Source: an uncultured Gammaproteobacteria bacterium (GTDB taxonomy: Bacteria > Patescibacteriota > Patescibacteriia > UBA1558 > 2-01-FULL-52-15). Taken from it: 52,394 bases of DNA. Positions 1,870-26,973 of the stretch are shown here, piece after piece. The first letter of the stretch is position 1. Each line of letters begins with the position of its first letter. The translations under genes and the position numbers were made by a program. The stretch spans positions 1 to 52,394 of the forward strand of contig CAYHYG010000003.1 of assembly GCA_964360835.1 (NCBI GenBank), read 5' to 3'. The notes under the pieces were generated by a model, which saw nothing but the letters and a program-made list of their open reading frames with translations, searched no databases and was not told the origin of the DNA.

Positions 1870-4767
1870 CTAAAAGCCCGTCAGTTGTTGCATTCTGTGT
1901 CTCGTCTTGTACCCGACATATCCGGAGACTGGGGTAATTAAGTATTTTTTCTGGAACTTGATGACCGCATTTCGGGTGAGATTACCAAAGTAACCGCTAA
2001 TCAGAGATTCAACGTAACTCCCTTCATAAACAAGGAATTCCTGTAGGTCTTTGATCGCTTCGCCTCTGTCGCCAAGTTTCATATCAGTACTGAACACAAC
2101 GAAATCTCCGGGAACCTGAAGGCGAGTTTCGGCTTGAGAGACAATATTGAGTTTCGTTTGCGTTGCAGTATCTACTACGCCGGTTACCGGCAGGCCATGC
2201 TTGGCTTGAAATTTCTTGAGTGCTTTTTCGGTAAGGGAGCCAAAGTAGCCGGTGATCATTCTTTCGGGGAACGATACATTTTCAAGCGCAAGAATTTCCT
2301 GTAAGTGTTCTACCTCAACGTCTTTATCACCCTTCTTGTGACTGCGAACAAAGTGCATAATGGGCAGAGCGGAAACGAGCGAGCCGCTTTCGTTGAACGT
2401 TATCTGCGTATTTCCGACTTTGGGTGCAAGTGAGACACGGACTGGATCAGAATAGGTTTTTGAGTGATTGTACGAATAGAGCGCGTAGTAATAGGTTGTG
2501 CCGTTTACGACATTGGTGTCGGTAAATGTTTCGCCCCGGCCTTCATAGATCGTTTGCCCGTCAGATGACGAATTCGGATAGCTTCCTTCTTTTCGCACGA
2601 CGATGGTGCGGACAAAGTCTTCTTCTCCAGGATTATTCCATTCAAAAATGATTTGATTGTCAGCCCGCTCGACTTTGACCGTGGTTGGTTCAAAACTGAA
2701 CGTCGCGTTACCACCCGAGCCAGTGCCGTATTCCTGGCGTACATGAAGTGAACCGCCGATCGAAGACCCTGAGCTTGCCTGCGGTGAGCCTGTCGAACCC
2801 GTCGAAGGGCTCCCGCCGCTAGACACATGCGCGCTTTCATTAATAACACTCGCGCCAGTAGTAGTCCTAATGGAAACAATGTTTGAAATCGGCGACCAGT
2901 CTCTTGCCTGATGTTTCGATTTAACTGCGAAATAGTACGTCGTGTTTGGATTAAGGCCGGCCACGATGTAATTACGCTCCATCCCTTCCGGATCGAGGTC
3001 ACTGTGATACACAGGCGTGAGCTGTGCCTCGGTCGTATTTGTGTAATTCTCTGCCGTTATCGGGCTGGTGCTGTAACGGATATCGTACTCGTACGAGATA
3101 TCTGTATTTTCCGAATCTGTACGCCATGTGAGATCAACCGAAAACTGGTCATAGCCACCTATGACAAGCGTGGAAAGAGCTGTCGGTGCTGACAGCGGAG
3201 TACTTGGAGCGGCTGTGGTGAAGGTATGATCATCCGAAAACGTGATATTCCCGACTTCATCTACTGACTTTACCCTGTAATGATATGTTGTCCCCGGCTC
3301 AAGATTGGCAAGCGAAATGGCATGAGAAGTCACAAGCGAAGAATTGAATGAGCTCTCTTCTCCGTAACTTGTACTCAAACCGTATTCAACCTGAGACGTA
3401 GCGCCTTTATCAGTCGTCCAGGAAATAGTCCCGCCGGATGTAGTTATTGAACCGACAGTTACAGACGTAACATTGGCCGCAGGAACTATAGGTACTGAAT
3501 GAGAGAGTGTTGAGAATTCATGATAACCAGAAATAGTGGCGACTACTGCACCGACCGGCTTTGATTTAATGCGATAAACGTAATTGGTATTGGGAGAAAG
3601 ATTGGAAATAGTGACGGAGTGAGAAGTACCCAAAGCACTACTAAGGGTCGTGAGCGAGCCAAGATCAAGACTGTCGCCGTACTCTATCTGGGAATCGGAC
3701 GGAAGATCAGTCAGCCAGGTGATGGTAACTTCTGATGTTGAAATCGAGGCGGTCTCGACGCTGGAAATGAGCAAGGTTGCGTTTTGTGAAGTAGTTGTAT
3801 CTCCTGTCTCTCCGGTTATGGTTGCTTCCGGAGCGATAACGGTAACCTCACTGGAGACAATTGAAGCGGTGGTGAAGGTATTGTCTGGACTGGTGGCGGT
3901 ATTGCCGATCTCGTCGGCGGTACGAATGCGGTAGTGATATTCGGTACCAGGAGTGAGTCCGATAAGGGTGATGCTGTGGTTAAGTGTGAGAGATGTATTA
4001 AGCGGTGTAACTTCACCGTACCCGGCTGTGGCGCCGTATTCAACTTATGAATTGGCCACGCTGTCTGTCGTCCAGTTGATGGTAACGCTATCCGTATTTA
4101 CGGACGTGATCGTCACAAGCGAAATGTCCGGCGGCGTGGTGTCCACGATTACGGATATGCCATCGCTCGTACCTGATTCGACGGCCGTAGTAAATTCATG
4201 GTCACAGGAATTTCTGGTATTACCTAGGAGATCAGTGGCATGAATGCAGTAATAATAGGTTGTGCCGGGAGTGAGTCCGGTGAGAATTGCCGTGTGTACT
4301 AAAAGGGCGCCAGCCTCGAGCGTAGCATTCTGCCCATAGCTTTGCGTTATGCCGTACTCAAGGCGAGAGGTCGCAAGCTCATCGGTCGTCCAGACGATCG
4401 TGGCTTCACTCAAGCCAAGTGAAAGATCAGCCACGCCGGAGATTGTCGGAGCGGTTGTATCCGTCGGCGGTATGCCTGATACGGTTTCTGTCACCGTCTC
4501 TGTGGTGGTCTGTACTTCCGGCTCAAGACCTTCGGCTTCGGCTGGTGAGTCAACAACAGGAGCAGACTCTACAACTGGTTCAGGTGCGACAACCGGCTCA
4601 GATACTGGCGCTGGCTCAGCTGTCGGAGCGGCGATATCGCCAAGCTGGGCGAATGTCGGAGCGACCGGAAGTATTAGAAGAGAGAAAACAAGAACAAATA
4701 ACAAAACTCTAAAGGAACTACGGGCAATTTTCATTTTCATCCCGTTAGATACTACATAGATATTCAT
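1870..4767 (-). pseudogene. Secreted Fn3-repeat / peptidoglycan-binding (PG_binding_1 x2) surface protein interrupted by a single in-frame TAA at 4045-4047
   Basis: ORFs 4045..4767 and 1870..3774 plus the untracked 3775-4044 lie in one frame. The N-terminal signal peptide is MKMKIARSSFRVLLFVLVFSLLILPVAPTFA. Repeated W(T/L)TD...(Q/R)xEYG...Y(H/Y)YR Fn3-like units occur throughout. The C-terminus has two GYFG.LT..A..KFQ..(H)GL motifs. The likely start is 4740 or 4734. Confidence 0.6.
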
Positions 4768-17493: not shown

Positions 17494-19068
17494 CTAGAGG
17501 TCAAGATCAATGCAAGTTTGGTTCGTCGGTGGCCTACAACTTATATCAGGACTGGGACACGGACTTACCCAACTACCGTTTACTAATTGCTTATTACAGG
17601 TACACACTCGTCTTTGAAACCCATTAGTGCATGGGGTCCAATTAGTGCAGGCCCATTGGTAAATACTACATTGAGGAGGGGTTACCCCTATGACTATACC
17701 GGAACAAGTAAGATTACATGCACCTTCTACAGAATTACTATTAGCCGCACCATCATCACAGACCTCTGTAAATCCTTGAGCGCCATTGGGTCTATTCACA
17801 TATCCATCACCGCATGTAGTCAACCGACATTCGTTGGTGCAGGTATCAAGGTTAGATATATCTCCATCATCACACTGCTCAATGAAGCCAACGCCATTAG
17901 GTGATTGCAGTTGACCATCACCACAAACGGTATATCCAGTACAACGGGCATTACAACGACCGCTATTTGTCTGGGTAATATCAGAGCCATAGGCCTCACT
18001 ACCAACAGTGTCAAAACAAACTGGCTGAACGGTATCTGTGATGGCTCTTTGTTGGCAATTGGCCGTTCCACAATGCTGACTGCATCCCACTCCTGTGTCA
18101 GCGCACACCCCACACAGCGCTCCATAGGGCTCCAGCTGTGGTGAGGTTACATTCTTGATAATGCTGGCTTCGGAGAATATCACGTACTGAAAAATATCAG
18201 ACAAGGCGGGATTAAATGGCGTGGTCACGGTTATCTCTTGGCTGGCGTTTCGGAAGCGTCCACGCGTCTGTATGGAAACCAGCGAGGGTAATCCGGCGCT
18301 ATTGTCTGTGGTGACAGAAAGTCGTTTCAGACCGTCGTCGATCGGGCGGATTGAAACATGGTAGAACTTGCTAGGAGTCAGGGATAATCTGCTGATTGTT
18401 GTATTACACTGGTTTGGAGTAACTCCACTACCGGTACAATCGCAAATAAAATAGTACTTCTGAGGCCGGCCAAACTGCAGACCGCTGGCATTCTGGAAAG
18501 TCACCAGGGAAACCTCCAATCTCTGACTGCCGCCGCAGGCCTTGACCTCCCAGTCAATCTTCAACTGATTGGCTTGTGTATCAATAACTGGATGAATAAC
18601 CGTCGGCGTTTCCTGGGTTGGATCAAAGACATTTAACTGCGCCGAAGAAAAAATTGGTAAATCATAGACAACGTATTCAGGTGAGGTTGTAGAAATTTTG
18701 ATGATATCATAGAGACGGTCTTTATCAGCATATGGACTTGGTGATATATAGGTTCTGTCCAACTGACGATTTAAGGTATTACTACGATTAAAAAACAAAT
18801 AATAAGGATACGGTGTCACCAGCTCGTCCAATCCTTTAGACTCTTTTAAAAACCAGAGCATCTCCTCGGCCGCGCTTTCAGCCGCGTAATGAGCTACTAC
18901 AGAGCTATCGAGATACCGCGCCGAGTTGATCTCTGTGATCAATAGACGACTGAGGGCAATGGTGGCAAACATGGTGATAGTTAATATCACCAGAGACATG
19001 AGCAAAACTGCTCCCCGGCTTGGATCCTGTAAAGACTTTCTTTTGCTACTGAATATTTCTGGGCGCAT
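17494..19068 (-). CDS. PilX-like minor pilus protein with C-terminal Cys-rich CGDG/CDDG repeats
   Basis: PilX_N-like SRGAVLLMSLVILTITMFATIAL. C-terminal CGDGQLQSPNGVGFIEQCDDG...C.NEC..TTCGDGYVNRPNGAQGFTEVCDDG resembles the Myxococcus-type cysteine-rich repeat. Confidence 0.55.
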   Translation of the reverse strand: MRPEIFSSKRKSLQDPSRGAVLLMSLVILTITMFATIALSRLLITEINSARYLDSSVVAHYAAESAAEEMLWFLKESKGLDELVTPYPYYLFFNRSNTLNRQLDRTYISPSPYADKDRLYDIIKISTTSPEYVVYDLPIFSSAQLNVFDPTQETPTVIHPVIDTQANQLKIDWEVKACGGSQRLEVSLVTFQNASGLQFGRPQKYYFICDCTGSGVTPNQCNTTISRLSLTPSKFYHVSIRPIDDGLKRLSVTTDNSAGLPSLVSIQTRGRFRNASQEITVTTPFNPALSDIFQYVIFSEASIIKNVTSPQLEPYGALCGVCADTGVGCSQHCGTANCQQRAITDTVQPVCFDTVGSEAYGSDITQTNSGRCNARCTGYTVCGDGQLQSPNGVGFIEQCDDGDISNLDTCTNECRLTTCGDGYVNRPNGAQGFTEVCDDGAANSNSVEGACNLTCSGIVIGVTPPQCSIYQWACTNWTPCTNGFQRRVCTCNKQLVNGSWVSPCPSPDISCRPPTNQTCIDLDL

Positions 19069-19858
19069 AATAACGTGTAGAAATCATAGTTTGAAAAAGG
19101 AGCGTCCGCTGACGCGCTACGTTAGCATTATTGGTGGCCGTCATCTGGATGGAAGTAAATGGCTGTTCTGTGGGATCGTCATTAGGATAAAATACCAAGG
19201 AGTCAATCCGAATACTGGGATCATTGAGGACTGACCAGCTAGCGCCCGAACATGAGGTACTATGACTAAGCTCGGCATTGAGATTAACGGCATTATGACG
19301 GATAAAAGTTGTCTGACCGCTCAAATCTTTGAGACAGATAAAATTGACATCCGGACAATTGCAGGTCGTCGGATCGGTATCAATAGTATGAGAGCGAATC
19401 TCGCGAGCAATCTGCTCAAATACCAACTGACTCTCGTTCAAAACAGCGACATTGGCTCTAGCATTATTCTGAGCTGTAGTCGTACCGATAAAAATCGAGC
19501 TAATTGCAATGAAAGCCAATGAAAAAATAGCAATCGTGACCAACATTTCTACTAGAGTATACCCAGCACCATTTTCAAGTAAGCTGTATTTAGCTCTTTT
19601 TTTAAACTCTCTTGAAGCATTGCCATGAGCTTTTAGCCTTTGTTCACGCTCTCGTGCATCAGCTTCCGAATTATATGCTTCATAAGCCACTACTTTCCAC
19701 GGCCTATACGGCCTAGTTGAAGTAACAAGCCCTTCATTATGCTCGTTTAACCTTCTATCTAAATTTTTGGTTGAGCCCATATATGTTTTACCTGTTTTTA
19801 CACTTTGTATTAAGTAGACGAAGTACATAAAAAATGGTGCTGGGCATATCCTTTTCAT
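19046..19858 (-). CDS. GIY-YIG nuclease domain fused in frame to a PilW-like type IV pseudopilin
   Basis: MKRICPAPFF-MYFVYLIQSVKTGKTYMGSTKNLDRRLNEHNEG...RPWKVVAYEAY..EADAREREQRLKAHGN...LLENGAG|YTLVEMLVTIAIFSLAF. The track start (19867) is GTG; ATG at 19858 follows the upstream stop by 1 nt. Confidence 0.8.
   Translation of the reverse strand: MKRICPAPFFMYFVYLIQSVKTGKTYMGSTKNLDRRLNEHNEGLVTSTRPYRPWKVVAYEAYNSEADAREREQRLKAHGNASREFKKRAKYSLLENGAGYTLVEMLVTIAIFSLAFIAISSIFIGTTTAQNNARANVAVLNESQLVFEQIAREIRSHTIDTDPTTCNCPDVNFICLKDLSGQTTFIRHNAVNLNAELSHSTSCSGASWSVLNDPSIRIDSLVFYPNDDPTEQPFTSIQMTATNNANVARQRTLLFQTMISTRYYAPRNIQ
19562..19844 (-). mobile_element. GIY-YIG element copy 1 (intact): 283-bp unit bounded by 14-bp perfect inverted repeats
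   Basis: On the plus strand, cccagcaccatttt (19562-19575) and aaaatggtgctggg (19831-19844) are exact reverse complements enclosing the GIY-YIG coding segment. Confidence 0.7.
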
Positions 19859-19859
19859 A

Positions 19860-20585
19860 TTATTCACGCCAGTTATATAATTTCTCTTTGACCGTCACCA
19901 TCTGACTACTGCCATACTTAACAATACCCGTGACCAATACGCCTATCTTGACATCACCAGTTGCACAGGAGAGACCGTACTCTCTGGTGCTCTCTACGTC
20001 ATTCGTGTCATTCCAGCAAATATCCTGAAGCACCACCAGCCGATGGAGCGATTCGTTATAACCATAGCCTACGGGAATACCGAAAGACAGAGCACAAAGG
20101 TCGCCAGCCATTTTTAAACAAGAACACATATAGTCCAATCTCTGACAACCAGATGAAAACGGATCAGGTACATCAACTTTGGTAAAACTATAGGTATCAG
20201 GGGTTCCCTGGCCTACTATGAAGGCCGGCGCCACAGACGCACCACTAACACCGGCAAATCGATCCCACGTGTAGGGTGTCGTTCCGGCTAGTATATTCAG
20301 ATCACTGCGCAGCCAATTGGTGTCACGAGTATTGCGTACGGCTTCGACCGCTGAGCGGGCTAGGTTAGCGGCAAAAACCCGACTGATATTATCTCGCGAA
20401 GCCCGATAATTTGATGTAGCCAGCACCAGAGCTCCGACCAAACCAGTGACAATGACGGCCAAAGCAATGATTACCTCTATCAAGGTGAACCCAGCATCAT
20501 TTTTTTGCCGCTTATTTTCCTCGTGTAACGAAATGCCTAAATTTCCTTTCATCTTTTGATTTTCAAAAAATTGTATCATCTGCAT
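19860..20585 (-). CDS. PilV-like type IV pseudopilin with an atypically long 32-aa leader
   Basis: MQMIQFFENQKMKGNLGISLHEENKRQKNDAG|FTLIEVIIALAVIVTGLVGALVL. The leader is encoded by the miniature element. Confidence 0.75.
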   Translation of the reverse strand: MQMIQFFENQKMKGNLGISLHEENKRQKNDAGFTLIEVIIALAVIVTGLVGALVLATSNYRASRDNISRVFAANLARSAVEAVRNTRDTNWLRSDLNILAGTTPYTWDRFAGVSGASVAPAFIVGQGTPDTYSFTKVDVPDPFSSGCQRLDYMCSCLKMAGDLCALSFGIPVGYGYNESLHRLVVLQDICWNDTNDVESTREYGLSCATGDVKIGVLVTGIVKYGSSQMVTVKEKLYNWRE

Positions 20586-20604
20586 AAAAATAATGCTGGG
20601 TTCA
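20486..20604 (-). mobile_element. GIY-YIG element copy 3: internally deleted miniature derivative (119 bp) with 19-bp inverted repeats (18/19 match)
   Basis: On the plus strand, tgaacccagcatcattttt (20486-20504) versus aaaaataatgctgggttca (20586-20604). The 81 nt between them keep an ORF from the ATG abutting the repeat. Confidence 0.65.
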
Positions 20605-20606
20605 TC

Positions 20607-21194
20607 TCAGCAACCACTTAAACTTTGCTCTATACGCAGAGAAGAATCTTGCGCTGTAGGAGCGAACTTGATTGAAGCAATACAACTATTACCAGTTACC
20701 CGTATCTGAAATATTATATTGCTACTATTCTGAGTCCAGAACTGTAAACAAAGAGGAGCTCCACAATTATTCTGCAGTTTAGGGAAGCTGTCTCCGTCAA
20801 AAATAATAGTCCCCTTGGCAATAGTACCCACACTACCGTTAAGAAAACGAAAATTAACATTGTTGGAAAGAGTATACGTCGCGACTCCTTCATCACTGTC
20901 ATAGATACCGTCATCACTTTTATCCGCGAACAAAATATACTGACGTGGCGTCACGGTGTTATCGAGGTACAAACCCCAACCCCCGGCTGGATAGACACTA
21001 TCAGCAGGGTTGACAATGCCATTGAAAGCTCTGTTCCTAGCCTGACGCAGGACAGCTACGACGCGATCAGCATCGGCTTTGATAATATCTTTGGTACCCA
21101 CTCCGCGCATTGTGACCACAGCAATCCCCATCAAAATACCGAAAATAGCGATGACGACTAAAAGTTCTATCATAGTATAACCATTTACTTTCAT
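20607..21194 (-). CDS. GspH/FimT-like type IV pseudopilin
   Basis: MKVNG|[22 protein letters not shown]...LRQARNRA. The ATG at 21194 overlaps the pilD stop (ATGA). The track's N-terminal extension is unlikely. Confidence 0.75.
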   Translation of the reverse strand: MKVNGYTMIELLVVIAIFGILMGIAVVTMRGVGTKDIIKADADRVVAVLRQARNRAFNGIVNPADSVYPAGGWGLYLDNTVTPRQYILFADKSDDGIYDSDEGVATYTLSNNVNFRFLNGSVGTIAKGTIIFDGDSFPKLQNNCGAPLCLQFWTQNSSNIIFQIRVTGNSCIASIKFAPTAQDSSLRIEQSLSGC

Positions 21195-21958
21195 GGCAGT
21201 AAAACTAAATTCTGATACCAGTCCCATATCTGGCCGCCGTAGAGCATGGCTATGAATGTAGACAAACTAAGAAAGGTACCAAATGGCACTTGGCTGGTCA
21301 TTTTCTTGCGACCGAGAATGATCAAAAAAATTCCAATAATACTGCCGGATAAATAAGCGATCATCAGCGCCACCGTAATCTGCGGCCACCCCAGAAGTAG
21401 TCCCATCGCCAACCCCAGCTTGACATCACCGAAGCCAATCCAGCGACCATGTGAAACCAGATACTGCAACCCAAAGAATCCAGCGCCAACCAGAGAGCCT
21501 ATCAAAAGATCCAGCCAGGATCGGCCTAACAATAAATTGCTCATGGCGCTGATCACGGCTAGTGGCCAGACAATTACATCCGGAATAATGTAATGTTTGA
21601 GGTCATAGACAAAGATGATAGCTAGTAGTGAAGTAACTATTATACCGCTAATAAAACCAATGATTGATAAAGGGTCTGTCAACGAATACATGGTACCAAG
21701 CATGACAAAAGCCAGGCCCATAGCTACCTCCACCAGTGGATATTGCACCGAGATAGACTTGTGGCAGTAGCGGCACTTTCCGACCAATATGATCCAGCTG
21801 ATGAGCGGTACCAAATCAATCCAGCTCAAGGAATGTCTACAGTCTGGGCAACGGGAACGCCCTTTGATAAACGACTCGTCCAAGCGCAGACGGTAAATCA
21901 CGGCATTGAGAAAACTGCCGATAATGAGGCCAAAGACAAAAAGAAAAAATAGTATCAT
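21191..21958 (-). CDS. pilD: Prepilin peptidase / N-methyltransferase (A24 family)
   Basis: 255 aa polytopic protein. CPDC...CRYC zinc motif and GFGDVKL active-site Asp motif. Confidence 0.9.
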   Translation of the reverse strand: MILFFLFVFGLIIGSFLNAVIYRLRLDESFIKGRSRCPDCRHSLSWIDLVPLISWIILVGKCRYCHKSISVQYPLVEVAMGLAFVMLGTMYSLTDPLSIIGFISGIIVTSLLAIIFVYDLKHYIIPDVIVWPLAVISAMSNLLLGRSWLDLLIGSLVGAGFFGLQYLVSHGRWIGFGDVKLGLAMGLLLGWPQITVALMIAYLSGSIIGIFLIILGRKKMTSQVPFGTFLSLSTFIAMLYGGQIWDWYQNLVLLP

Positions 21959-22002: not shown

Positions 22003-22731
22003 TTATGGAGTTGTACTAGTTACACATCCCGTTTCAGTACATGTAATGGTTTTCCCGCCCGAGAGACAGGTTGTTGGTAACGGGAAAGTGGTTGATGATG
22101 GCTCACAAGCAGAAAAAGTAAAGGTCGCAGAATCTGAATTTGAGTTAGCCAAGAATTTATAAATCCAGGGGTTTCTAGTGTCTTTGGCTAAATCGGGCCA
22201 TGTTCCAACTGCTGGGCTATCATTCAAACAGATAGCCGATGTCGCGTCTGGTTTTCCTAGCGGACCAGAAGCAGCTCCATTACAAGCATCCATACCCGCC
22301 GGCGCCGCGCAATTCAGTTGCACATTGCTCTGCAAACAGACTGAAGCCCCTTTCAGTAGATTATTCATGGTTGACTCCATCTGGGTCAACTTGGCTTTTG
22401 TACGGGTTGAAGATAAATTTACAACCGCCACAGCAGATAGTATGCCTATAATGGCAATGACTACCAAAAGTTCAATTAAAGTAAACCCAGCACCATTTTT
22501 CAAACTTCCCCGAGCTCTTCTCTTTAATTCTTTAATGGCATTTCCATGTGCTTTTAATTTTTGTTCATGCTCTCTTGCATCTGCTTCTGAGCTATAGGCC
22601 TCATAGACAGCGAGCCTCCATGGCCTGTATGGTTTTGTTGAGCTAACTAAACCGTCATTATGCTCCTGGAGCCTTCTCTCTAAATTATTTGTGGAACCCA
22701 TATAAATTCTATTTATTTTTAAACTTTTCAA
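22003..22731 (-). CDS. Type IV pilin carrying a truncated GIY-YIG domain as an N-terminal extension
   Basis: ...IYMGSTNNLERRLQEHNDGLVSSTKPYRPWRLAVYEAYSSEADAREHEQKLKAHGN...SLKNGAG|[24 protein letters not shown], with a Cys-rich C-terminal globular part. The track start is TTG; the first ATG is at 22701. Confidence 0.75.
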   Translation of the reverse strand: MKSLKINRIYMGSTNNLERRLQEHNDGLVSSTKPYRPWRLAVYEAYSSEADAREHEQKLKAHGNAIKELKRRARGSLKNGAGFTLIELLVVIAIIGILSAVAVVNLSSTRTKAKLTQMESTMNNLLKGASVCLQSNVQLNCAAPAGMDACNGAASGPLGKPDATSAICLNDSPAVGTWPDLAKDTRNPWIYKFLANSNSDSATFTFSACEPSSTTFPLPTTCLSGGKTITCTETGCVTSTTP

Positions 22732-22859
22732 GGAGCTTGTCTAGATCTTTAGAGTAGTTCTAAGATTAAGACATGCCCCAGAAGATTCTAAAAGGTAGTC
22801 GGTTAAGTAACCGGACGGTAGGCAATATATAGACAAAATACATAAAAATGGTGCTGGGT
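22485..22859 (-). mobile_element. GIY-YIG element copy 2 (ORF disrupted), bounded by 16-bp perfect inverted repeats
   Basis: On the plus strand, acccagcaccattttt (22485-22500) and aaaaatggtgctgggt (22844-22859) are exact reverse complements. The orphaned prepilin start ATGAAGAAGGGATTTA lies just outside, with its ATG at 22874-22872. Confidence 0.7.
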
Positions 22860-22894
22860 AAATCCCTTCTTCATATTTTATTTTACTATTTATA

Positions 22895-23320
22895 TTAAGT
22901 GCACTGCAATTTGTACATAGGTCGTATCTGACATTTCTTACCTTCCAACCCTTGACCAGACCAACGGTGAGACAAACGGAAAGAAATAGTATAACTCGAA
23001 CCGTCACTGGTATAGGTTCCACCAGAATCTAACCTAGCATAATAATACACCTTTCCGGACGGGTTGCCAAAGCCGCTATCGCTGATCACCATGACTCCTG
23101 CCAATTTTTTGTCCGTCGCTACTGGATAGCTACGATGTTGTCCATAGTAAGCTTCCAAACCATAGCTATAGGCTTTCAATCCAGACAATAGGCGTACGTC
23201 GTTGGCTTTGCCACCGTAATACAAGGACAATCCAAAGACAAACCCCAAAATGATGACCGAAATCGCTAGTGAAACAATATAGAATCGGTATTTGTAGAAA
23301 AATTCCCAAGATAGTAACAT
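22895..23320 (-). CDS. Membrane-anchored hypothetical protein in the pilin block
   Basis: MLLSWEFFYKYRFYIVSLAISVIILGFVFGLSLYY, then a ~100-aa soluble part. No prepilin motif. The track start (23362) is TTG. Confidence 0.45.
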   Translation of the reverse strand: MLLSWEFFYKYRFYIVSLAISVIILGFVFGLSLYYGGKANDVRLLSGLKAYSYGLEAYYGQHRSYPVATDKKLAGVMVISDSGFGNPSGKVYYYARLDSGGTYTSDGSSYTISFRLSHRWSGQGLEGKKCQIRPMYKLQCT

Positions 23321-23398
23321 ATGAAACTCTAAATTCCTGCCTCGACTTGTCGTCTTCGGCAAGGCGGGCTAAATACTAAGCTCAATTTAATAACGTCT

Positions 23399-23498: not shown

Positions 23499-23960
23499 CT
23501 AACAACTAGCAGCAACACCCTTTATACACCCATTACTCGAATCGCAGACAATACACACATCTTGATCAATATTACGCATAGAAAATTCCCATCTTTGACT
23601 GCTGGCAGTGTATTCGCATGGTAGATAGGTAAAATTATAGGTACCAATATATGGCCAGGTACCGAGATTACCAACCGTGCAAAAAGGATCTCCGTCTCTT
23701 GGCGTATTCTGAATAGGAGTACCATCACCACAGGTAATAGGTCCACTACCGTCGTTACGGCTAGTGATCTGACCACCAGAATCAGTACATAGCATCATAC
23801 CGGCAATCAAATTATTAGCCGAAGCCTGACCAGCTGCGACTTTAGCCTTACCACGAGCGCTATTCAAGTTGACGATAGAGATAGCTGACAAGATACCGAT
23901 AATGGCGATGACGACCAGTAATTCTATCAGCGTAAAACCTTTTGTACTCACTCCTTTCAT
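23499..23960 (-). CDS. Type IV pilin (paralog 2)
   Basis: MKGVSTKG|[32 protein letters not shown], with a Cys-rich C-terminus. The track's upstream extension overlaps the preceding pilin gene and is not credible. Confidence 0.85.
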   Translation of the reverse strand: MKGVSTKGFTLIELLVVIAIIGILSAISIVNLNSARGKAKVAAGQASANNLIAGMMLCTDSGGQITSRNDGSGPITCGDGTPIQNTPRDGDPFCTVGNLGTWPYIGTYNFTYLPCEYTASSQRWEFSMRNIDQDVCIVCDSSNGCIKGVAASC

Positions 23961-24033
23961 ACACATAGTATACCAAACAAAATACAGACTGTCTTGATGA
24001 GATAGTCTGTATTTATCTAATAACAACCGATAA

Positions 24034-24477
24034 CTAACATCCAACGTATGTACATCCTGAAGCAGCGCTACAGGTAATAGTACAGGTACCATTAGATGCC
24101 TGAAAGGAGAAGGTGCTATTCGGCTTGTCCGATATACATCCCGTAGCACCAGCCGCGCCGTAAGTAAATCCGTTACCTAAAATAACTGGCCAATTACCAA
24201 TATTGGCAACGCTACAGAATGATCCACCAGGAGTAATCGCAAGGCCGCTCGCTGCAACTGCTGGGCAGGTTGCTGCGGCTCCGTTTTGAATTACGCCGGT
24301 CGCATCATCCTGACAAATTACTAATCCCGGGATTACACCACTCAATGCAGCCTTGGCGGCAGCAATCTTGGCCTTATCACGAGCTGAGTTCAAGTTGACG
24401 ATGGCGATAGCTGAGAGAATACCGATAATAGCGATAACCACCAACAATTCGATCAAGGTAAAACCTTTTTTATTCAT
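24034..24477 (-). CDS. pilA: Type IV major pilin candidate
   Basis: MNKKG|[33 protein letters not shown] strong SD (GGGAGGTG) precedes the ATG, and the gene has its own promoter. 147 aa. Confidence 0.85.
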
Positions 24478-24681: not shown

Positions 24682-25890
24682 TTATTGAAAACTCCGCGCC
24701 AACTCCATCATCGGCACCATGACCGCGCCGACCATGAAAGCCACACCCACGCCTAAAGTCACTAGAATTATCGGCTCAATCAGTGAGGTCAAGGTCGAGA
24801 CTAAGGTTGTGACTTCACGATCATAAAAATTACCCAAACGTTCCAGGATTTCGTCCAGCTTACCAGTCTGCTCACCCACAGCCATCATCTCCGTGACAAT
24901 CTTTGGTATCAGACGACTCTCGGCCGTAACGGTAGTAATAGAATTACCATCCTGCACTTCCTTGATAGTTTGGACCAGTACTTCACGATAGGCAGCATTA
25001 TCGACTACCTCACTGGTAATCTCCAAAGCCGTACCAATAGGCACGCCGCCTTTGATCAGAGTAGCCAGACTGCGTGTCAGACGCACCAGGATAACCTTAT
25101 TCAGAATCAAGCCGAAAACGGGAACTTTCAAGATGATCCGACTCCAGACATCTCGACCTGATTTGGTCGCTGTATAGGCACGGAGTAGAGCTATGACACC
25201 GACAAATATGACCGGTATTGTCCACCAATAAATAGTCATAAAATCACTGATCTGAATCAGGATACGAGTGGCGATGGGCAACTCTCCTCCGCTTTCTTTC
25301 AATAAATTGGCAATATTGGGGATAACGTAGACCATCATAACGATACCCACGGCAATCATAACTAAAACGATGATAGCCGGATAAATCATAGCACCACGAA
25401 TACGGTTGACCAGATCATAATCTTTTTCCATCTGATCGGCTAGATAATTCAAAACTTCGTCCAGACGTCCGCTAGTCTCTCCGGAATGAATCATAGCTAC
25501 AAAAAACCGACTGAAAACTTTGGGATGACGACCAAACGCCTGAGACATAGGAAGACCGCCATCGACATCATCTGCCATTTGTTTGGCCACATCGCGTATC
25601 TGTGACGAATCTGTCTGCTGAGACAAAACTCTCAGAGCCGGCACGATCGGCACCGTAGCCTGAACCATGACCGCTAGCTGTCGGGCAAAAATTACAATAT
25701 CCTTCATACGCGGGCCACCGATATTGATATTACGAAAATTTCGATGGACGCCTCTGACCTGATGCAGTCGTACCACTACCAAACCACGATCAGACAGGAC
25801 CTCATTGGCCGCAGTTATAGTAGAGGCTTCGACGGTCCCTTGAGAAACTTGTCCAATGGGGCTGACTGCTTTGTAACGATATAACGCCAT
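24682..25890 (-). CDS. pilC: Type IV pilus platform protein (GspF/PilC family)
   Basis: 402 aa with two T2SSF repeats and three TM segments. Confidence 0.9.
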   Translation of the reverse strand: MALYRYKAVSPIGQVSQGTVEASTITAANEVLSDRGLVVVRLHQVRGVHRNFRNINIGGPRMKDIVIFARQLAVMVQATVPIVPALRVLSQQTDSSQIRDVAKQMADDVDGGLPMSQAFGRHPKVFSRFFVAMIHSGETSGRLDEVLNYLADQMEKDYDLVNRIRGAMIYPAIIVLVMIAVGIVMMVYVIPNIANLLKESGGELPIATRILIQISDFMTIYWWTIPVIFVGVIALLRAYTATKSGRDVWSRIILKVPVFGLILNKVILVRLTRSLATLIKGGVPIGTALEITSEVVDNAAYREVLVQTIKEVQDGNSITTVTAESRLIPKIVTEMMAVGEQTGKLDEILERLGNFYDREVTTLVSTLTSLIEPIILVTLGVGVAFMVGAVMVPMMELARSFQ

Positions 25891-25899
25891 GAATCTATC

Positions 25900-26973
25900 T
25901 TATTGCTTAACCATTAGCTGGAGACCGTTAGGGTCTACGGCATATTTGGACGCCTGGTCTAGCGACAGAATACCTGCTTTGACCAGGTCAGCCAAACTAC
26001 GATCCAGAGTAATCATACCATCCTGACGCGAAGTCATCATCACATTGCTCAGTTGGAAAAAATTACCGTCACGCAGAACGTTACGCACCGCGCCATTCAT
26101 AGTCAAAATGCCAGAAACAAGCTGCAAACTGTTATCAGATTTGGGGACTAAGCGCTGATTGGTCATGATCAGGAGATGCTCCGAGATAATATCCTTGGCC
26201 CACTGCTGCTCCGATGGAGGTATCAGACCCATGAATGACTCCAGAGTCGTGGATATAGACAGACCATTCAAAACCACCAACACCAATTTACCACCCTCGA
26301 CCGCCTGCAATATTGCTACTTCCTCAGCCGCTTCATTGACATGAGCTACCACGATGACATCGACATCAGCATCTACCGCTTCATGAAGTCCGTCGATGAA
26401 AGACGGCACATCAGTACCGACCTGACGCTGATGAATGACTGATTTATTATTGACCAACTGATATTCAATTGGTTGTTCTAAAGTTAAAATGTGTCGACTT
26501 TGTGTCTGGTTGACATATTCCACCAGACTAGCCGCAGTGGTCGAACGTCCAGAATTATACGGTCCAGAGATAAAGATCAACCCTTTGGTCTTGGCCATAG
26601 CAGCGATCAACATTGGTGAGATCTGTAGCTCCTTGGGCAAAAGTAATCTTGGCGGTATCACCCGTAAAGATAAAGACATATATCCACGTTGATAAAATAC
26701 CTGGGCTCGGAATCTAGCCCGATCAGCCCAAGTATAGACCGTGGCCACCTCGCGCTGTCGTTGTAAGGCTTCGTTTTCTGCAGGAGACAAAAAAGATTCT
26801 GCCACAGTATTCAGGACATCAGGTGTCAAAATCTGATCCTGGGTGGCTGTCACCAGCTGACCATTGATGCGATAGACCGGATAATTGCCGACGGTCAAGT
26901 GAATATCAGTGGCCTTGCGCTCCAGAGCGTCGTTCAGAATTTTATTCAGCAGTAAGCTGGTGGTGGTGCTCAT
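25900..26973 (-). CDS. pilT: Type IV pilus retraction ATPase
   Basis: 357 aa. Walker A GPYNSGRSTT, TLEQPIEY, and PilT-like length and layout. Confidence 0.85.
   Translation of the reverse strand: MSTTTSLLLNKILNDALERKATDIHLTVGNYPVYRINGQLVTATQDQILTPDVLNTVAESFLSPAENEALQRQREVATVYTWADRARFRAQVFYQRGYMSLSLRVIPPRLLLPKELQISPMLIAAMAKTKGLIFISGPYNSGRSTTAASLVEYVNQTQSRHILTLEQPIEYQLVNNKSVIHQRQVGTDVPSFIDGLHEAVDADVDVIVVAHVNEAAEEVAILQAVEGGKLVLVVLNGLSISTTLESFMGLIPPSEQQWAKDIISEHLLIMTNQRLVPKSDNSLQLVSGILTMNGAVRNVLRDGNFFQLSNVMMTSRQDGMITLDRSLADLVKAGILSLDQASKYAVDPNGLQLMVKQ

Follow-up and report, generated by a model that had tools for sequence, protein, structure and literature searches.

The question raised by the locus described here is how a type IV pilin gene can carry a repeat-bounded unit exactly at the codons where the prepilin leader is normally cut off. 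The locus lies in a 52,394-nt stretch of DNA from an uncultured, ultra-small groundwater bacterium of the GTDB phylum Patescibacteriota (GenBank assembly GCA_964360835.1, contig CAYHYG010000003.1, forward strand), referred to below as the window, and the unit occupies positions 22485-22859. The unit is probably one copy, disabled by a nested insertion of 94 nt, of a selfish, hairpin-ended element found widely among Patescibacteria, also called the Candidate Phyla Radiation (CPR). A more specific reading, towards which we lean slightly, is that the element parks in the leader peptide of its host protein, rebuilds the Gly(-1) of the cleavage site and is removed by the prepilin peptidase of the host, by which its nuclease would be freed; it would then be a CPR-wide mobile repeat with a GIY-YIG nuclease gene as its autonomous form.

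Structure of the unit

On the minus strand the locus reads TAAAAT ATG AAG AAG GGA TTT A/CCCAGCACCATTTTT ATG TAT TTT GTC TAT ATA TTG ... AGT TTG AAAAATGGTGCTGGG/TTT ACT TTA ATT GAA CTT, with slashes at the borders of the unit. The initial annotation of this DNA, made from the letters alone, had described a perfect inverted repeat of 15 or 16 nt with TTTAC on each side; both were found in the sequence, and the arms are fully complementary (Table 1). When the unit and one TTTAC are removed in silico, ATG AAG AAG GGA TTT ACT TTA ATT GAA CTT is left, which is translated as MKKG/FTLIEL (slash, cleavage position), the prepilin start that had been predicted; the uninvaded pilins starting at 24477 and 23960, named for comparison of the architecture, are present. 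The empty site would read GGATTTACTTTAATTGAA, with the junction ATGAAGAAGGGATTTACTTTAATTGAACTT. The orphan ATG (22872-22874) was placed 20 nt past the stop codon of the preceding gene, and the coordinates of that stop (22895-22897, open reading frame [ORF] 22895-23362) agree.

The nuclease ORF of this unit, called copy 2 below, is undamaged on either side of the nested insertion, and deletion of the 94 nt in silico gives an ORF of 88 codons with all catalytic residues back. The insertion folds better than its shuffled versions (z = -3.5); an Rfam match, terminal inverted repeats and a second copy in the window and 170 loci were all sought and not found.

The repeat pairs in the window exceed chance. 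At no more than 3 mismatches the 15-mer occurs seven times in the 52-kb window, with 1.8 occurrences expected and none of 100 shuffles reaching seven; six of these pair up into three inverted repeats, every one of which stops precisely at a pilin Gly(-1) codon. An assembly chimera or junction artefact, named at the outset as an alternative and conceivable in a metagenome assembly, is contradicted by two independent ENA assemblies of the Hainich groundwater well H52 that carry the same structure (100% and 99.97% identity) and by the same architecture in more than 100 unrelated loci from many projects; its probability is negligible.

Copies in the pilus operon

The copies in the window all lie on the minus strand within one type IV pilus operon, which comprises six pilin-like genes together with genes for an ATPase, a PilC-like protein and PilD, the prepilin peptidase. 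Of the six, three are occupied, two by copies with a nuclease gene and one by a 111-nt deletion derivative. The ORF of copy 1 has no stop codon and continues through the 3' arm into the pilin at 19046-19561 (YTLVEML..., with the N-methylation motif); the arms of this copy (19562-19576 and 19830-19844) are flanked by TATG and TATA, in line with the initial annotation. Copy 3 is the miniature one: its 81-nt loop has its own ATG (20583-20585), encodes MQMIQFFENQKMKGNLGISLHEENKRQ and supplies a 32-residue leader up to KNDAG/FTLIEV, the gene being 19860-20585 and the mature part of the pilin 19860-20489. The loop of copy 3 is similar to the 3' end of the nuclease ORF. The miniature copy, the GIY-YIG interior, the reading frame into the pilin and the nested insertion are all absent from the initial annotation.

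The three pilin junctions (GAG/FTLIEL, GAG/YTLVEM, DAG/FTLIEV) have the Gly at -1, the hydrophobic helix and the Glu at +5 of class III signal peptides, and the N_methyl family PF07963 was matched by all three pilins (E=8e-5 for copy 1, 4.5e-8 for copy 2 and 4e-7 for copy 3). The short basic leader of that class is missing: the leader encoded by the ORF has 89-102 aa in copy 1, about 72-82 aa as called in copy 2, and 32 aa in copy 3. Ordinary leaders of type IV prepilins have approximately 5-30 residues. In the two uninvaded pilin genes, an inverted-repeat partner of the arm was not found, the best match having 6 mismatches.

A TTG codon stands right before the 3' arm in copy 2 (22501-22509, minus strand: AGT TTG AAA) and at many other loci (TTG AAA ART GGT GCT GGG). 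It is not universal, and copy 1 is without a TTG there. If used as a start, the codon would yield a canonical short leader, M-K-[NS]-G-A-G/F, which is a possible alternative route of pilin expression.

Table 1. Positions of copy 2, the other features of the pilus operon and hairpins in or beside RNA genes. L followed by a number denotes a locus outside the window.
Feature	Position	Strand	Remarks
Copy 2, inverted repeat ACCCAGCACCATTTTT	22485-22500 / 22844-22859		16 nt, 100% complementary, 343 nt between arms
Copy 2, orphan prepilin start ATG AAG AAG GGA TTT A (M-K-K-G-F-)	22859-22874	minus	read from sequence
Copy 2, 5' arm CCCAGCACCATTTTT	22844-22858	minus	perfect inverted repeat; 16 nt with A22859
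Copy 2, GIY-YIG ORF, first 7 codons (MYFVYIL)	22823-22843	minus	ATG abuts arm
Copy 2, nested 94-nt insertion	22729-22822	minus	stop codons inside; TTG at each flank; breaks nuclease ORF
Copy 2, remainder of GIY-YIG ORF (KSLKINRIYMGSTNNLERRLQEHN...KELKRRARGSL)	22501-22728	minus	Pfam PF01541, E=6.5e-12
Copy 2, 3' arm AAAAATGGTGCTGGG, translated K-N-G-A-G	22486-22500	minus	provides Gly(-1) of prepilin-peptidase site
Copy 2, mature pilin including stop codon	22003-22485	minus	N_methyl PF07963, E=4.5e-8
Copy 1, intact	19562-19858	minus	orphan ATG 19856-19858; 5' arm 19830-19844; 3' arm 19562-19576, read E-N-G-A-G
Copy 1, GIY-YIG ORF	ATG 19826-19828	minus	89 codons; PF01541, E=1e-15; ATG 1 nt past 5' arm
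Copy 3, miniature	20490-20605	minus	orphan ATG 20603-20605; 5' arm 20586-20600; 3' arm 20490-20504, read K-N-D-A-G
Prepilin peptidase (PilD, peptidase A24)	21191-21958	minus	Pfam A24_N_bact, E=2.6e-32; Peptidase_A24, E=1.6e-14
Two uninvaded pilin genes with short ordinary leaders	23499-24477	minus	MNKKG/F from 24477; MKGVSTKG/F from 23960
PilC-like gene	24682-25890		
ATPase	25900-26973		
Hairpin in RNase P RNA genes	L091 1912-1962; L097 1334-1389; L111 720-772		
Hairpin inside group I introns of 23S rRNA	L056 5156-5192; L095 161-210		
Hairpin directly upstream of tmRNA gene	L140 5497-5538		

The last gene of the operon (17494-19068, minus strand) encodes a Cys-rich protein of 524 aa that weakly matches the myxococcal cysteine-rich repeat and, at its N-terminus, faintly matches tapirin; a possible identity is that of an adhesin associated with the pilus.

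The nuclease

The full element consists of two 15-nt arms, CCCAGCACCAYTTTT and AAAARTGGTGCTGGG, around a single-domain GIY-YIG nuclease gene of about 88 codons. The nuclease ATG is located 0-5 nt past the 5' arm, and the ORF runs without a stop codon through the 3' arm (K-[NS]-G-A-G) into Phe(+1) of the pilin. The nuclease part is 84-89 aa long, with no other domain before the pilin junction. Across 40 fusion proteins, four residues (Y5, G18, R26, N31) never vary and four more (Y16, H30, E50, N70) reach at least 90% conservation; copy 1, as well as copy 2 after removal of the 94-nt insertion, has all conserved GIY-YIG residues. The nearest solved sequences are UPF0213 BH0048 (6e-5) and SLX1 (2e-3), the latter a structure-specific nuclease.

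Searched exhaustively with HMMER, 1.84 billion cluster representatives yielded 5580 matches, and among the best 150 of these, about 90 had the fusion architecture (190-612 aa, nuclease at residue 1, K[NS]GAG/FTLIE junction). Such proteins are labelled 'hypothetical', 'GIY-YIG domain-containing' or 'putative endonuclease' in public records.

Between copies 1 and 2 the nuclease ORFs share 72% identity, at dS=2.1 (synonymous changes, saturated) and a ratio of nonsynonymous to synonymous change (dN/dS) of 0.096, and the low ratio means that the nuclease has been under purifying selection and kept functional. The arms of the two copies match at 29 of 30 positions, the sole difference being the base that opens the 3' arm (GAA in copy 1, AAA in copy 2); since this identity was retained despite the saturated dS, the arms are constrained at the nucleotide level.

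The unit might also be thought to leave at the RNA level, by splicing or other processing of the mRNA, or to be bypassed in translation, as happens in T4 gene 60 and the mitochondrial 'byp' elements, so that the arms would join GGA-UUU and GGG-UUU and the pilin would be made from the orphan start. In about 90 protein clusters the ORF stays open and keeps its frame across the 3' arm, which would be needless were the unit skipped, and many small units are read through in frame (e.g., L046 and L025). RNA folds closed by the arms are indeed predicted, with z=-4.3 for copy 1 and z=-5.65 for the strong hairpin of copy 3 (-40.6 kcal/mol); the Gly-Phe codons on each side match, with synonymous variation only, and the orphan ATG stands where a start would normally be in the operon. 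Matches to Rfam intron or ribozyme families were not found, however, and RNase III cutting of the stem would sever the mRNA without re-ligation. To our knowledge, the gap of 250-345 nt also far exceeds known bypass distances, and this explanation is very improbable.

Two further arrangements of GIY-YIG genes were observed. At L011 (2373-2866), and also at L090 and L141, the nuclease is a separate ORF with its own stop codon and has a complete hairpin of about 105 nt on each side; the downstream hairpin of L011 is the pilin-leader one, and that pilin is without an obvious in-frame ATG. Proteins P0007 and P0037 have tandemly duplicated GIY-YIG domains of a different subfamily, each preceded by the same peptide of about 25 residues (e.g., VPTSRDYGNGFWSRDPRFESLHPS), and may represent another repeat-flanked nuclease unit.

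The arm hairpin across Patescibacteria

The arms were followed in two sets of loci. The GTDB set comprised 49 loci, all from Patescibacteria, which were gathered by the pilin-junction pattern, so the set is pilin-biased; the metagenome set came from a scan for the perfect hairpin that was blind to context, comprised at least 120 loci and is biased to short loops. The arms CCCAGCACCAYTTTT were found in more than 100 Patescibacteria loci from many projects. A scan of viral contigs for the hairpin gave 0 matches.

An arm partner with at most 2 of 15 mismatches was present at 45 of the 56 pilin leaders ending in GAG or DAG (24 of them perfect), versus 0 of 44 other leaders. Judged by their sequence variation, the arms are nucleic-acid signals, not protein motifs, because they are read in all three frames, show no preference for a loop phase and vary by compensatory changes. 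The 5' arm is translated as PAPFF, TQHHF or PSTTF/PSTIF in different proteins, and in the fusion proteins its translation is found before the nuclease or between nuclease and pilin. The spacing of the arms ranges from 5 to about 345 nt, with the three phases evenly filled. Compensatory double changes were seen at 9 of the 15 stem positions (e.g., CCCCGC/GCGGGG, TCCAGC/GCTGGA and CCAAATCT/AGATTTGG), which 0 of 500 shuffles reached; the units were picked at no more than 2 mismatches, so the percentage of paired positions is partly given by construction, which does not hold for the double changes.

Full copies are fewer than non-autonomous derivatives, among which are internal deletions (such as the nuclease of L024, MHY…EAYPIEKLARMREKRLKYNGNAIRELKKR), units of about 105 nt with their own ATG and leader, and bare hairpins of 35-45 nt, the commonest form, with loops of 5-11 nt. 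The 105-nt subfamily (75-nt loop) occurs across distant CPR lineages (L011 4217, L034 3092, L013 216, L037 2417), with 74-85% identity where measured and flanks at the random level, and its loop supplies a new start and leader, MNF/MDFxxKK...LLKSGAG/F, where only the last slash is the cleavage position. Tandem or nested units were present at L030, L017, L011 and L008; at L030, L017 and L008 the 3' arm regenerates GGG TTY A, and the second unit is a re-insertion there.

Insertion site and empty alleles

The initial annotation had proposed an insertion into the Gly-Phe-Thr codons with a short target duplication. The insertion is borne out by the flanks and by an empty allele, and the staggered-cut duplication is not, the repeat being TTYA and imperfect. 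GG[AG]TT[TC]A precedes the 5' arm in about 57 of 72 arm matches, often as part of a complete orphan leader (MNKGFT, MKKGFT, MPKKGFT, MKNKQTGFT). Of 49 further pilin-borne copies, taken from 40-odd genomes of Patescibacteria, 45 have TTYA to the left as well as to the right, so that further copies without consistent flanks, which would have told against the proposal, were not the rule. The same left flank was found in 27 of the 28 pilin-borne hairpins among the matches listed in the context-blind scan.

Among the 102 unique context-blind sites listed, an identical 4-nt repeat flanks the hairpin at 31 (21 TTTA, 4 TCAA, 3 TTCA), versus 1 of 102 in a displaced control, and about 13 of the 31 are outside pilins. 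Complementary flanks were seen at nine of the 102 sites, as expected at helix tips.

At four non-pilin hairpin sites (L071, L116, L142, L147) the flanks are GTCAA-hairpin-TCAA. Their sharing suggests a second preferred target besides TTYA.

An empty allele, which had been proposed as a check, was found for a sister copy in Candidatus Tagabacteria, as the in-silico deletion predicts. One 90% protein cluster contains the filled form MKNKGFT-PHHFF-MHYVY…SLKNGAG-FTLLFSV… (236 aa) and the empty form MKNKGFTLLFSV… (141 aa). Both alleles have the same neighbours, pilin genes on one side and a DNA ligase gene on the other, the flanks are 98.9-99.9% identical over 1-2 kb, and the only difference is 285 nt (95 codons). 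The empty site reads GGA TTT ACT and the filled one GGA TTC A/CCCCGCACCATTTTT…AAAAATGGTGCGGGG/TTT ACT. The unit has thus been gained or lost in a natural population. For the window locus itself, a metagenome scan for orthologues of the copy 2 pilin body, by which an empty allele was sought, gave no relatives; the 90% clusters of the three occupied-pilin proteins contained no shorter alleles, and two other contigs with the locus were identical to the window.

The movement of flanking sequence was seen at L045, where two adjacent pilin paralogues, unrelated elsewhere, have in common TTTA, a 50-nt unit without any difference and the next 27 nt on the 3' side, and then diverge. At L089 an identical 40-nt hairpin lies in unrelated flanks, with no shared flank.

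Copies in RNA genes

Among the matches listed in the context-blind scan, only 28 of 123 hairpins have a pilin location; the others are in 23S rRNA, group I introns or RNase P RNA, beside the tmRNA gene or in unassigned sequence (Table 1). The 23S rRNA gene of a Patescibacteria locus (L022 608-4595) has three inserts with the same arms: a bare hairpin near model position 275 (878-929), another at helix 25 (1232-1285), and an arm-GIY-YIG ORF-arm unit at a helix tip near model position 1750 (2463-2776). The gene also contains two group I introns (3424-3663 and 4057-4293). RNA helix tips are other places that tolerate an added stem-loop.

The presence of the arm-nuclease-arm unit within a 23S rRNA gene also bears on the idea that an old pilin family simply acquired a fused N-terminal nuclease domain and passed it on vertically, the orphan leader being a coincidence. 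The fusion is common and conserved as a protein, as that idea would have it; nevertheless, the empty allele joins the orphan leader exactly to the pilin, the downstream pilin bodies are mutually unrelated, and orphan leaders recur in many lineages. We regard such a vertical origin as extremely unlikely.

Proposed route of insertion and removal

Starting from the established anatomy, the in-frame fusion with its regenerated Gly(-1), the PilD gene in the operon, the constraint on the arms and the selection on the nuclease, the following route is proposed. The pilin would be translated with the nuclease as an oversized cytoplasmic leader peptide, and PilD from the operon would cut behind the arm-encoded Gly, giving a normal mature pilin and a free nuclease, so that the insertion would be phenotypically silent. 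Leader removal by PilD would explain why the element persists in pilin genes only at that codon position. We know of no precedent for the processing of a prepilin leader of about 90 residues.

The target of the freed nuclease would be the hairpin or cruciform formed by the arms, or else the adjoining TTYA junction. This substrate is expected because the enzyme has no DNA-binding domain, is akin to SLX1 and UPF0213, and has a precedent in Ssn, single-domain GIY-YIG enzymes that cut single-stranded DNA (ssDNA) beside hairpin repeats flanking their own genes (PMC11893778). The resulting break or nick would be repaired by copying from an occupied gene, with the conserved FTLIELLV codons as 3' homology and GGNTT as 5' microhomology. 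Break-stimulated copying is favoured because of the 3' co-conversion tract of L045, the TTCA versus TTTA of the Tagabacteria pair and the uncorrelated wobble bases described below. A cut-and-duplicate step is possible in view of the 4-nt repeats at non-pilin sites. Loss could be a matter of slippage across the hairpin, from one flanking direct repeat to the other, which is how Tn5 and Tn10 are excised precisely.

Several observations weigh against this reading. The flanking repeat is one of 4 nt (TTYA) or an imperfect one of 8 nt (GGNTTYAC), not a clean 5-nt target-site duplication, and no significant correlation was found between the left and right TTT/TTC wobble bases (Fisher p=0.19). In the Tagabacteria pair the left copy is TTCA and the empty site TTTA, so a staggered-cut duplication is unsupported, and gene conversion from a donor would fit the sequences at least as well. 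The copies in rRNA and RNase P RNA mostly have no duplication, so that a single chemistry of insertion does not account for every copy. About two-thirds of the small units have their orphan start out of frame, and L011 and L018 have no obvious pilin start codon. The bare hairpins are putatively linked to the nuclease, through the arms that they share with its units. The saturated dS indicates that the two nuclease copies of the operon are old, not recent transpositions, and long-term purifying selection is also expected of a domesticated function. Finally, we infer, as opposed to observe, the activity and substrate of the nuclease, the chemistry of transfer and the cleavage of a leader of about 90 residues by PilD.

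A domesticated module, in which hairpin and nuclease serve the host, would account for the strength and duration of the selection (dN/dS 0.096 at dS 2.1) and for the conservation of the arms across CPR phyla. Its nuclease would be deliberately made as a leader released by PilD at the base of the pilus, and the module would either cut hairpin-bearing incoming ssDNA at a competence pilus, as Ssn would, and thereby tune transformation, or control pilin translation through the stem, which could gate initiation, the 5' arm abutting the ATG. The pili of CPR bacteria are thought to import DNA (PMC12455944), and the hairpin-nuclease-hairpin layout of L011, L090 and L141 resembles NTS-ssnA-NTS (PMC11893778). 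The same hairpin is found in rRNA, RNase P RNA and intron helices with no apparent role linked to the pilus, though, and three of the six pilin genes of the operon are without a unit. Alleles with and without the unit occur side by side in one population, decay products are common (the broken ORF of copy 2, internal deletions elsewhere), and the SRM motif that defines Ssn targets was not found in the window, the units or the nuclease loci. Domestication is on these grounds unlikely, although it is the most serious of the alternatives.

Implications

If the selfish-element reading is true, removal by the leader peptidase of the host would be a fourth route to silence within a gene, beside RNA splicing, protein splicing and translational bypass. 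The pilin-fused GIY-YIG 'hypothetical proteins', the non-intron GIY-YIG insertions and the short insertions in CPR rRNA would then belong to one hairpin repeat family. Ssn-like pairs of nuclease and hairpin could be mobile elements, for which the natural filled/empty polymorphism offers an entry point. In annotation, CPR pilin genes with 'leaders' of 90-130 residues should not be called pseudogenes or nucleases. The 15-nt arms and the small nuclease could also make a compact sequence- or structure-specific tool.

Comparison with known systems

Full-text literature searches turned up no account of pilin leaders that contain a nuclease or a hairpin element. Among known systems, Ssn and its NTS repeats are alike in the single-domain GIY-YIG protein of about 90 aa, the hairpin repeat flanking the gene, the many nuclease-free copies of the repeat, and the hairpin-gene-hairpin layout similar to that of insertion sequences (IS), which was seen here in L011, L090 and L141. 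They differ in that the repeat sequence is unrelated, the arms here usually bracket the gene itself and are not separate hairpins, the ORF is fused to a pilin, and the copies lie inside genes at one codon position or at RNA helix tips; moreover, Ssn elements are not known to be mobile, whereas filled/empty polymorphism was found here. Assignment to the Ssn/SRM system was dropped, since the SRM motif (HGTCWY...RNCYNB) had 0 matches in the window, the units and 28 nuclease loci and a different conserved hairpin flanks the gene.

Miniature inverted-repeat transposable elements and transposons with terminal inverted repeats (e.g., Correia), as well as IS200/IS605 with REP/RAYT, share the terminal inverted repeats, the abundant deletion derivatives beside a rarer coding form, the 4-nt flanking repeat (TTTA, TCAA, TTCA; about 30% of sites here) and the preference for one short target. 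Here, however, the one encoded protein is a hydrolytic GIY-YIG nuclease, and a recombinase of the DDE, HUH or serine/tyrosine type is missing; many sites have an imperfect duplication or none, and the L045 copy took flanking host sequence along. The peel-and-paste transposition of IS200/IS605, with its hairpin ends and TTAC-like target, was not adopted because the only enzyme is hydrolytic and the flank of L045 was carried along. Integron attC sites, whose core is GTTRRRY, were dropped as the flanks do not fit that core, and a role as DNA-uptake sequence was dropped because the arms are conserved across phyla and not lineage-specific.

Rickettsia palindromic elements (RPE) are reportedly short selfish palindromes read in frame inside protein genes and also present in RNA genes (Ogata et al. 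2000). We know of no nuclease encoded by an RPE. The likeness, drawn by description and not by sequence, lies in a short palindromic selfish repeat that is tolerated in coding genes through in-frame reading and occurs in RNA genes as well; RPE occupy many positions and stay permanently in the mature protein, whereas the element here is in the leader only and would be expected to be cleaved off. RPE are mentioned in PMC1779305.

In CPR rRNA genes, non-intron insertions with GIY-YIG ORFs and short ORF-less insertions have been described, and those with GIY-YIG ORFs deemed 'outside homing' (PMC11270868). These insertions, and the intervening sequences of 23S rRNA, correspond to the arm-GIY-YIG-arm unit and the bare hairpins at helix tips in L022; the helix 25 site of the classical intervening sequences is occupied in L022, a relative of the window copy, not in the window copy itself. 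Inverted repeats or a link to pilins are not reported in PMC11270868, and the shared arms tie rRNA and pilin inserts together as one repeat family.

The homing endonuclease genes of introns and inteins are alike in that a nuclease gene sits in a conserved host target, has empty and filled alleles, and is neutralised post-transcriptionally or post-translationally, as it would be here. As at homing sites, the position is a defined one in conserved host sequence, after the TTYA of the Gly-Phe-Thr codons in pilin genes. As to co-conversion of flanking sequence, a tract on one side was seen at L045 and none at L089. The element differs in having no intron or intein: an Rfam intron search of the units found none, no splicing element was found, and the ORF is continuous with that of the host. 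The nuclease is without the DNA-binding domain of I-TevI-type GIY-YIG homing enzymes. The element further has terminal inverted repeats and short flanking direct repeats, and its removal would be carried out by the leader peptidase of the host.

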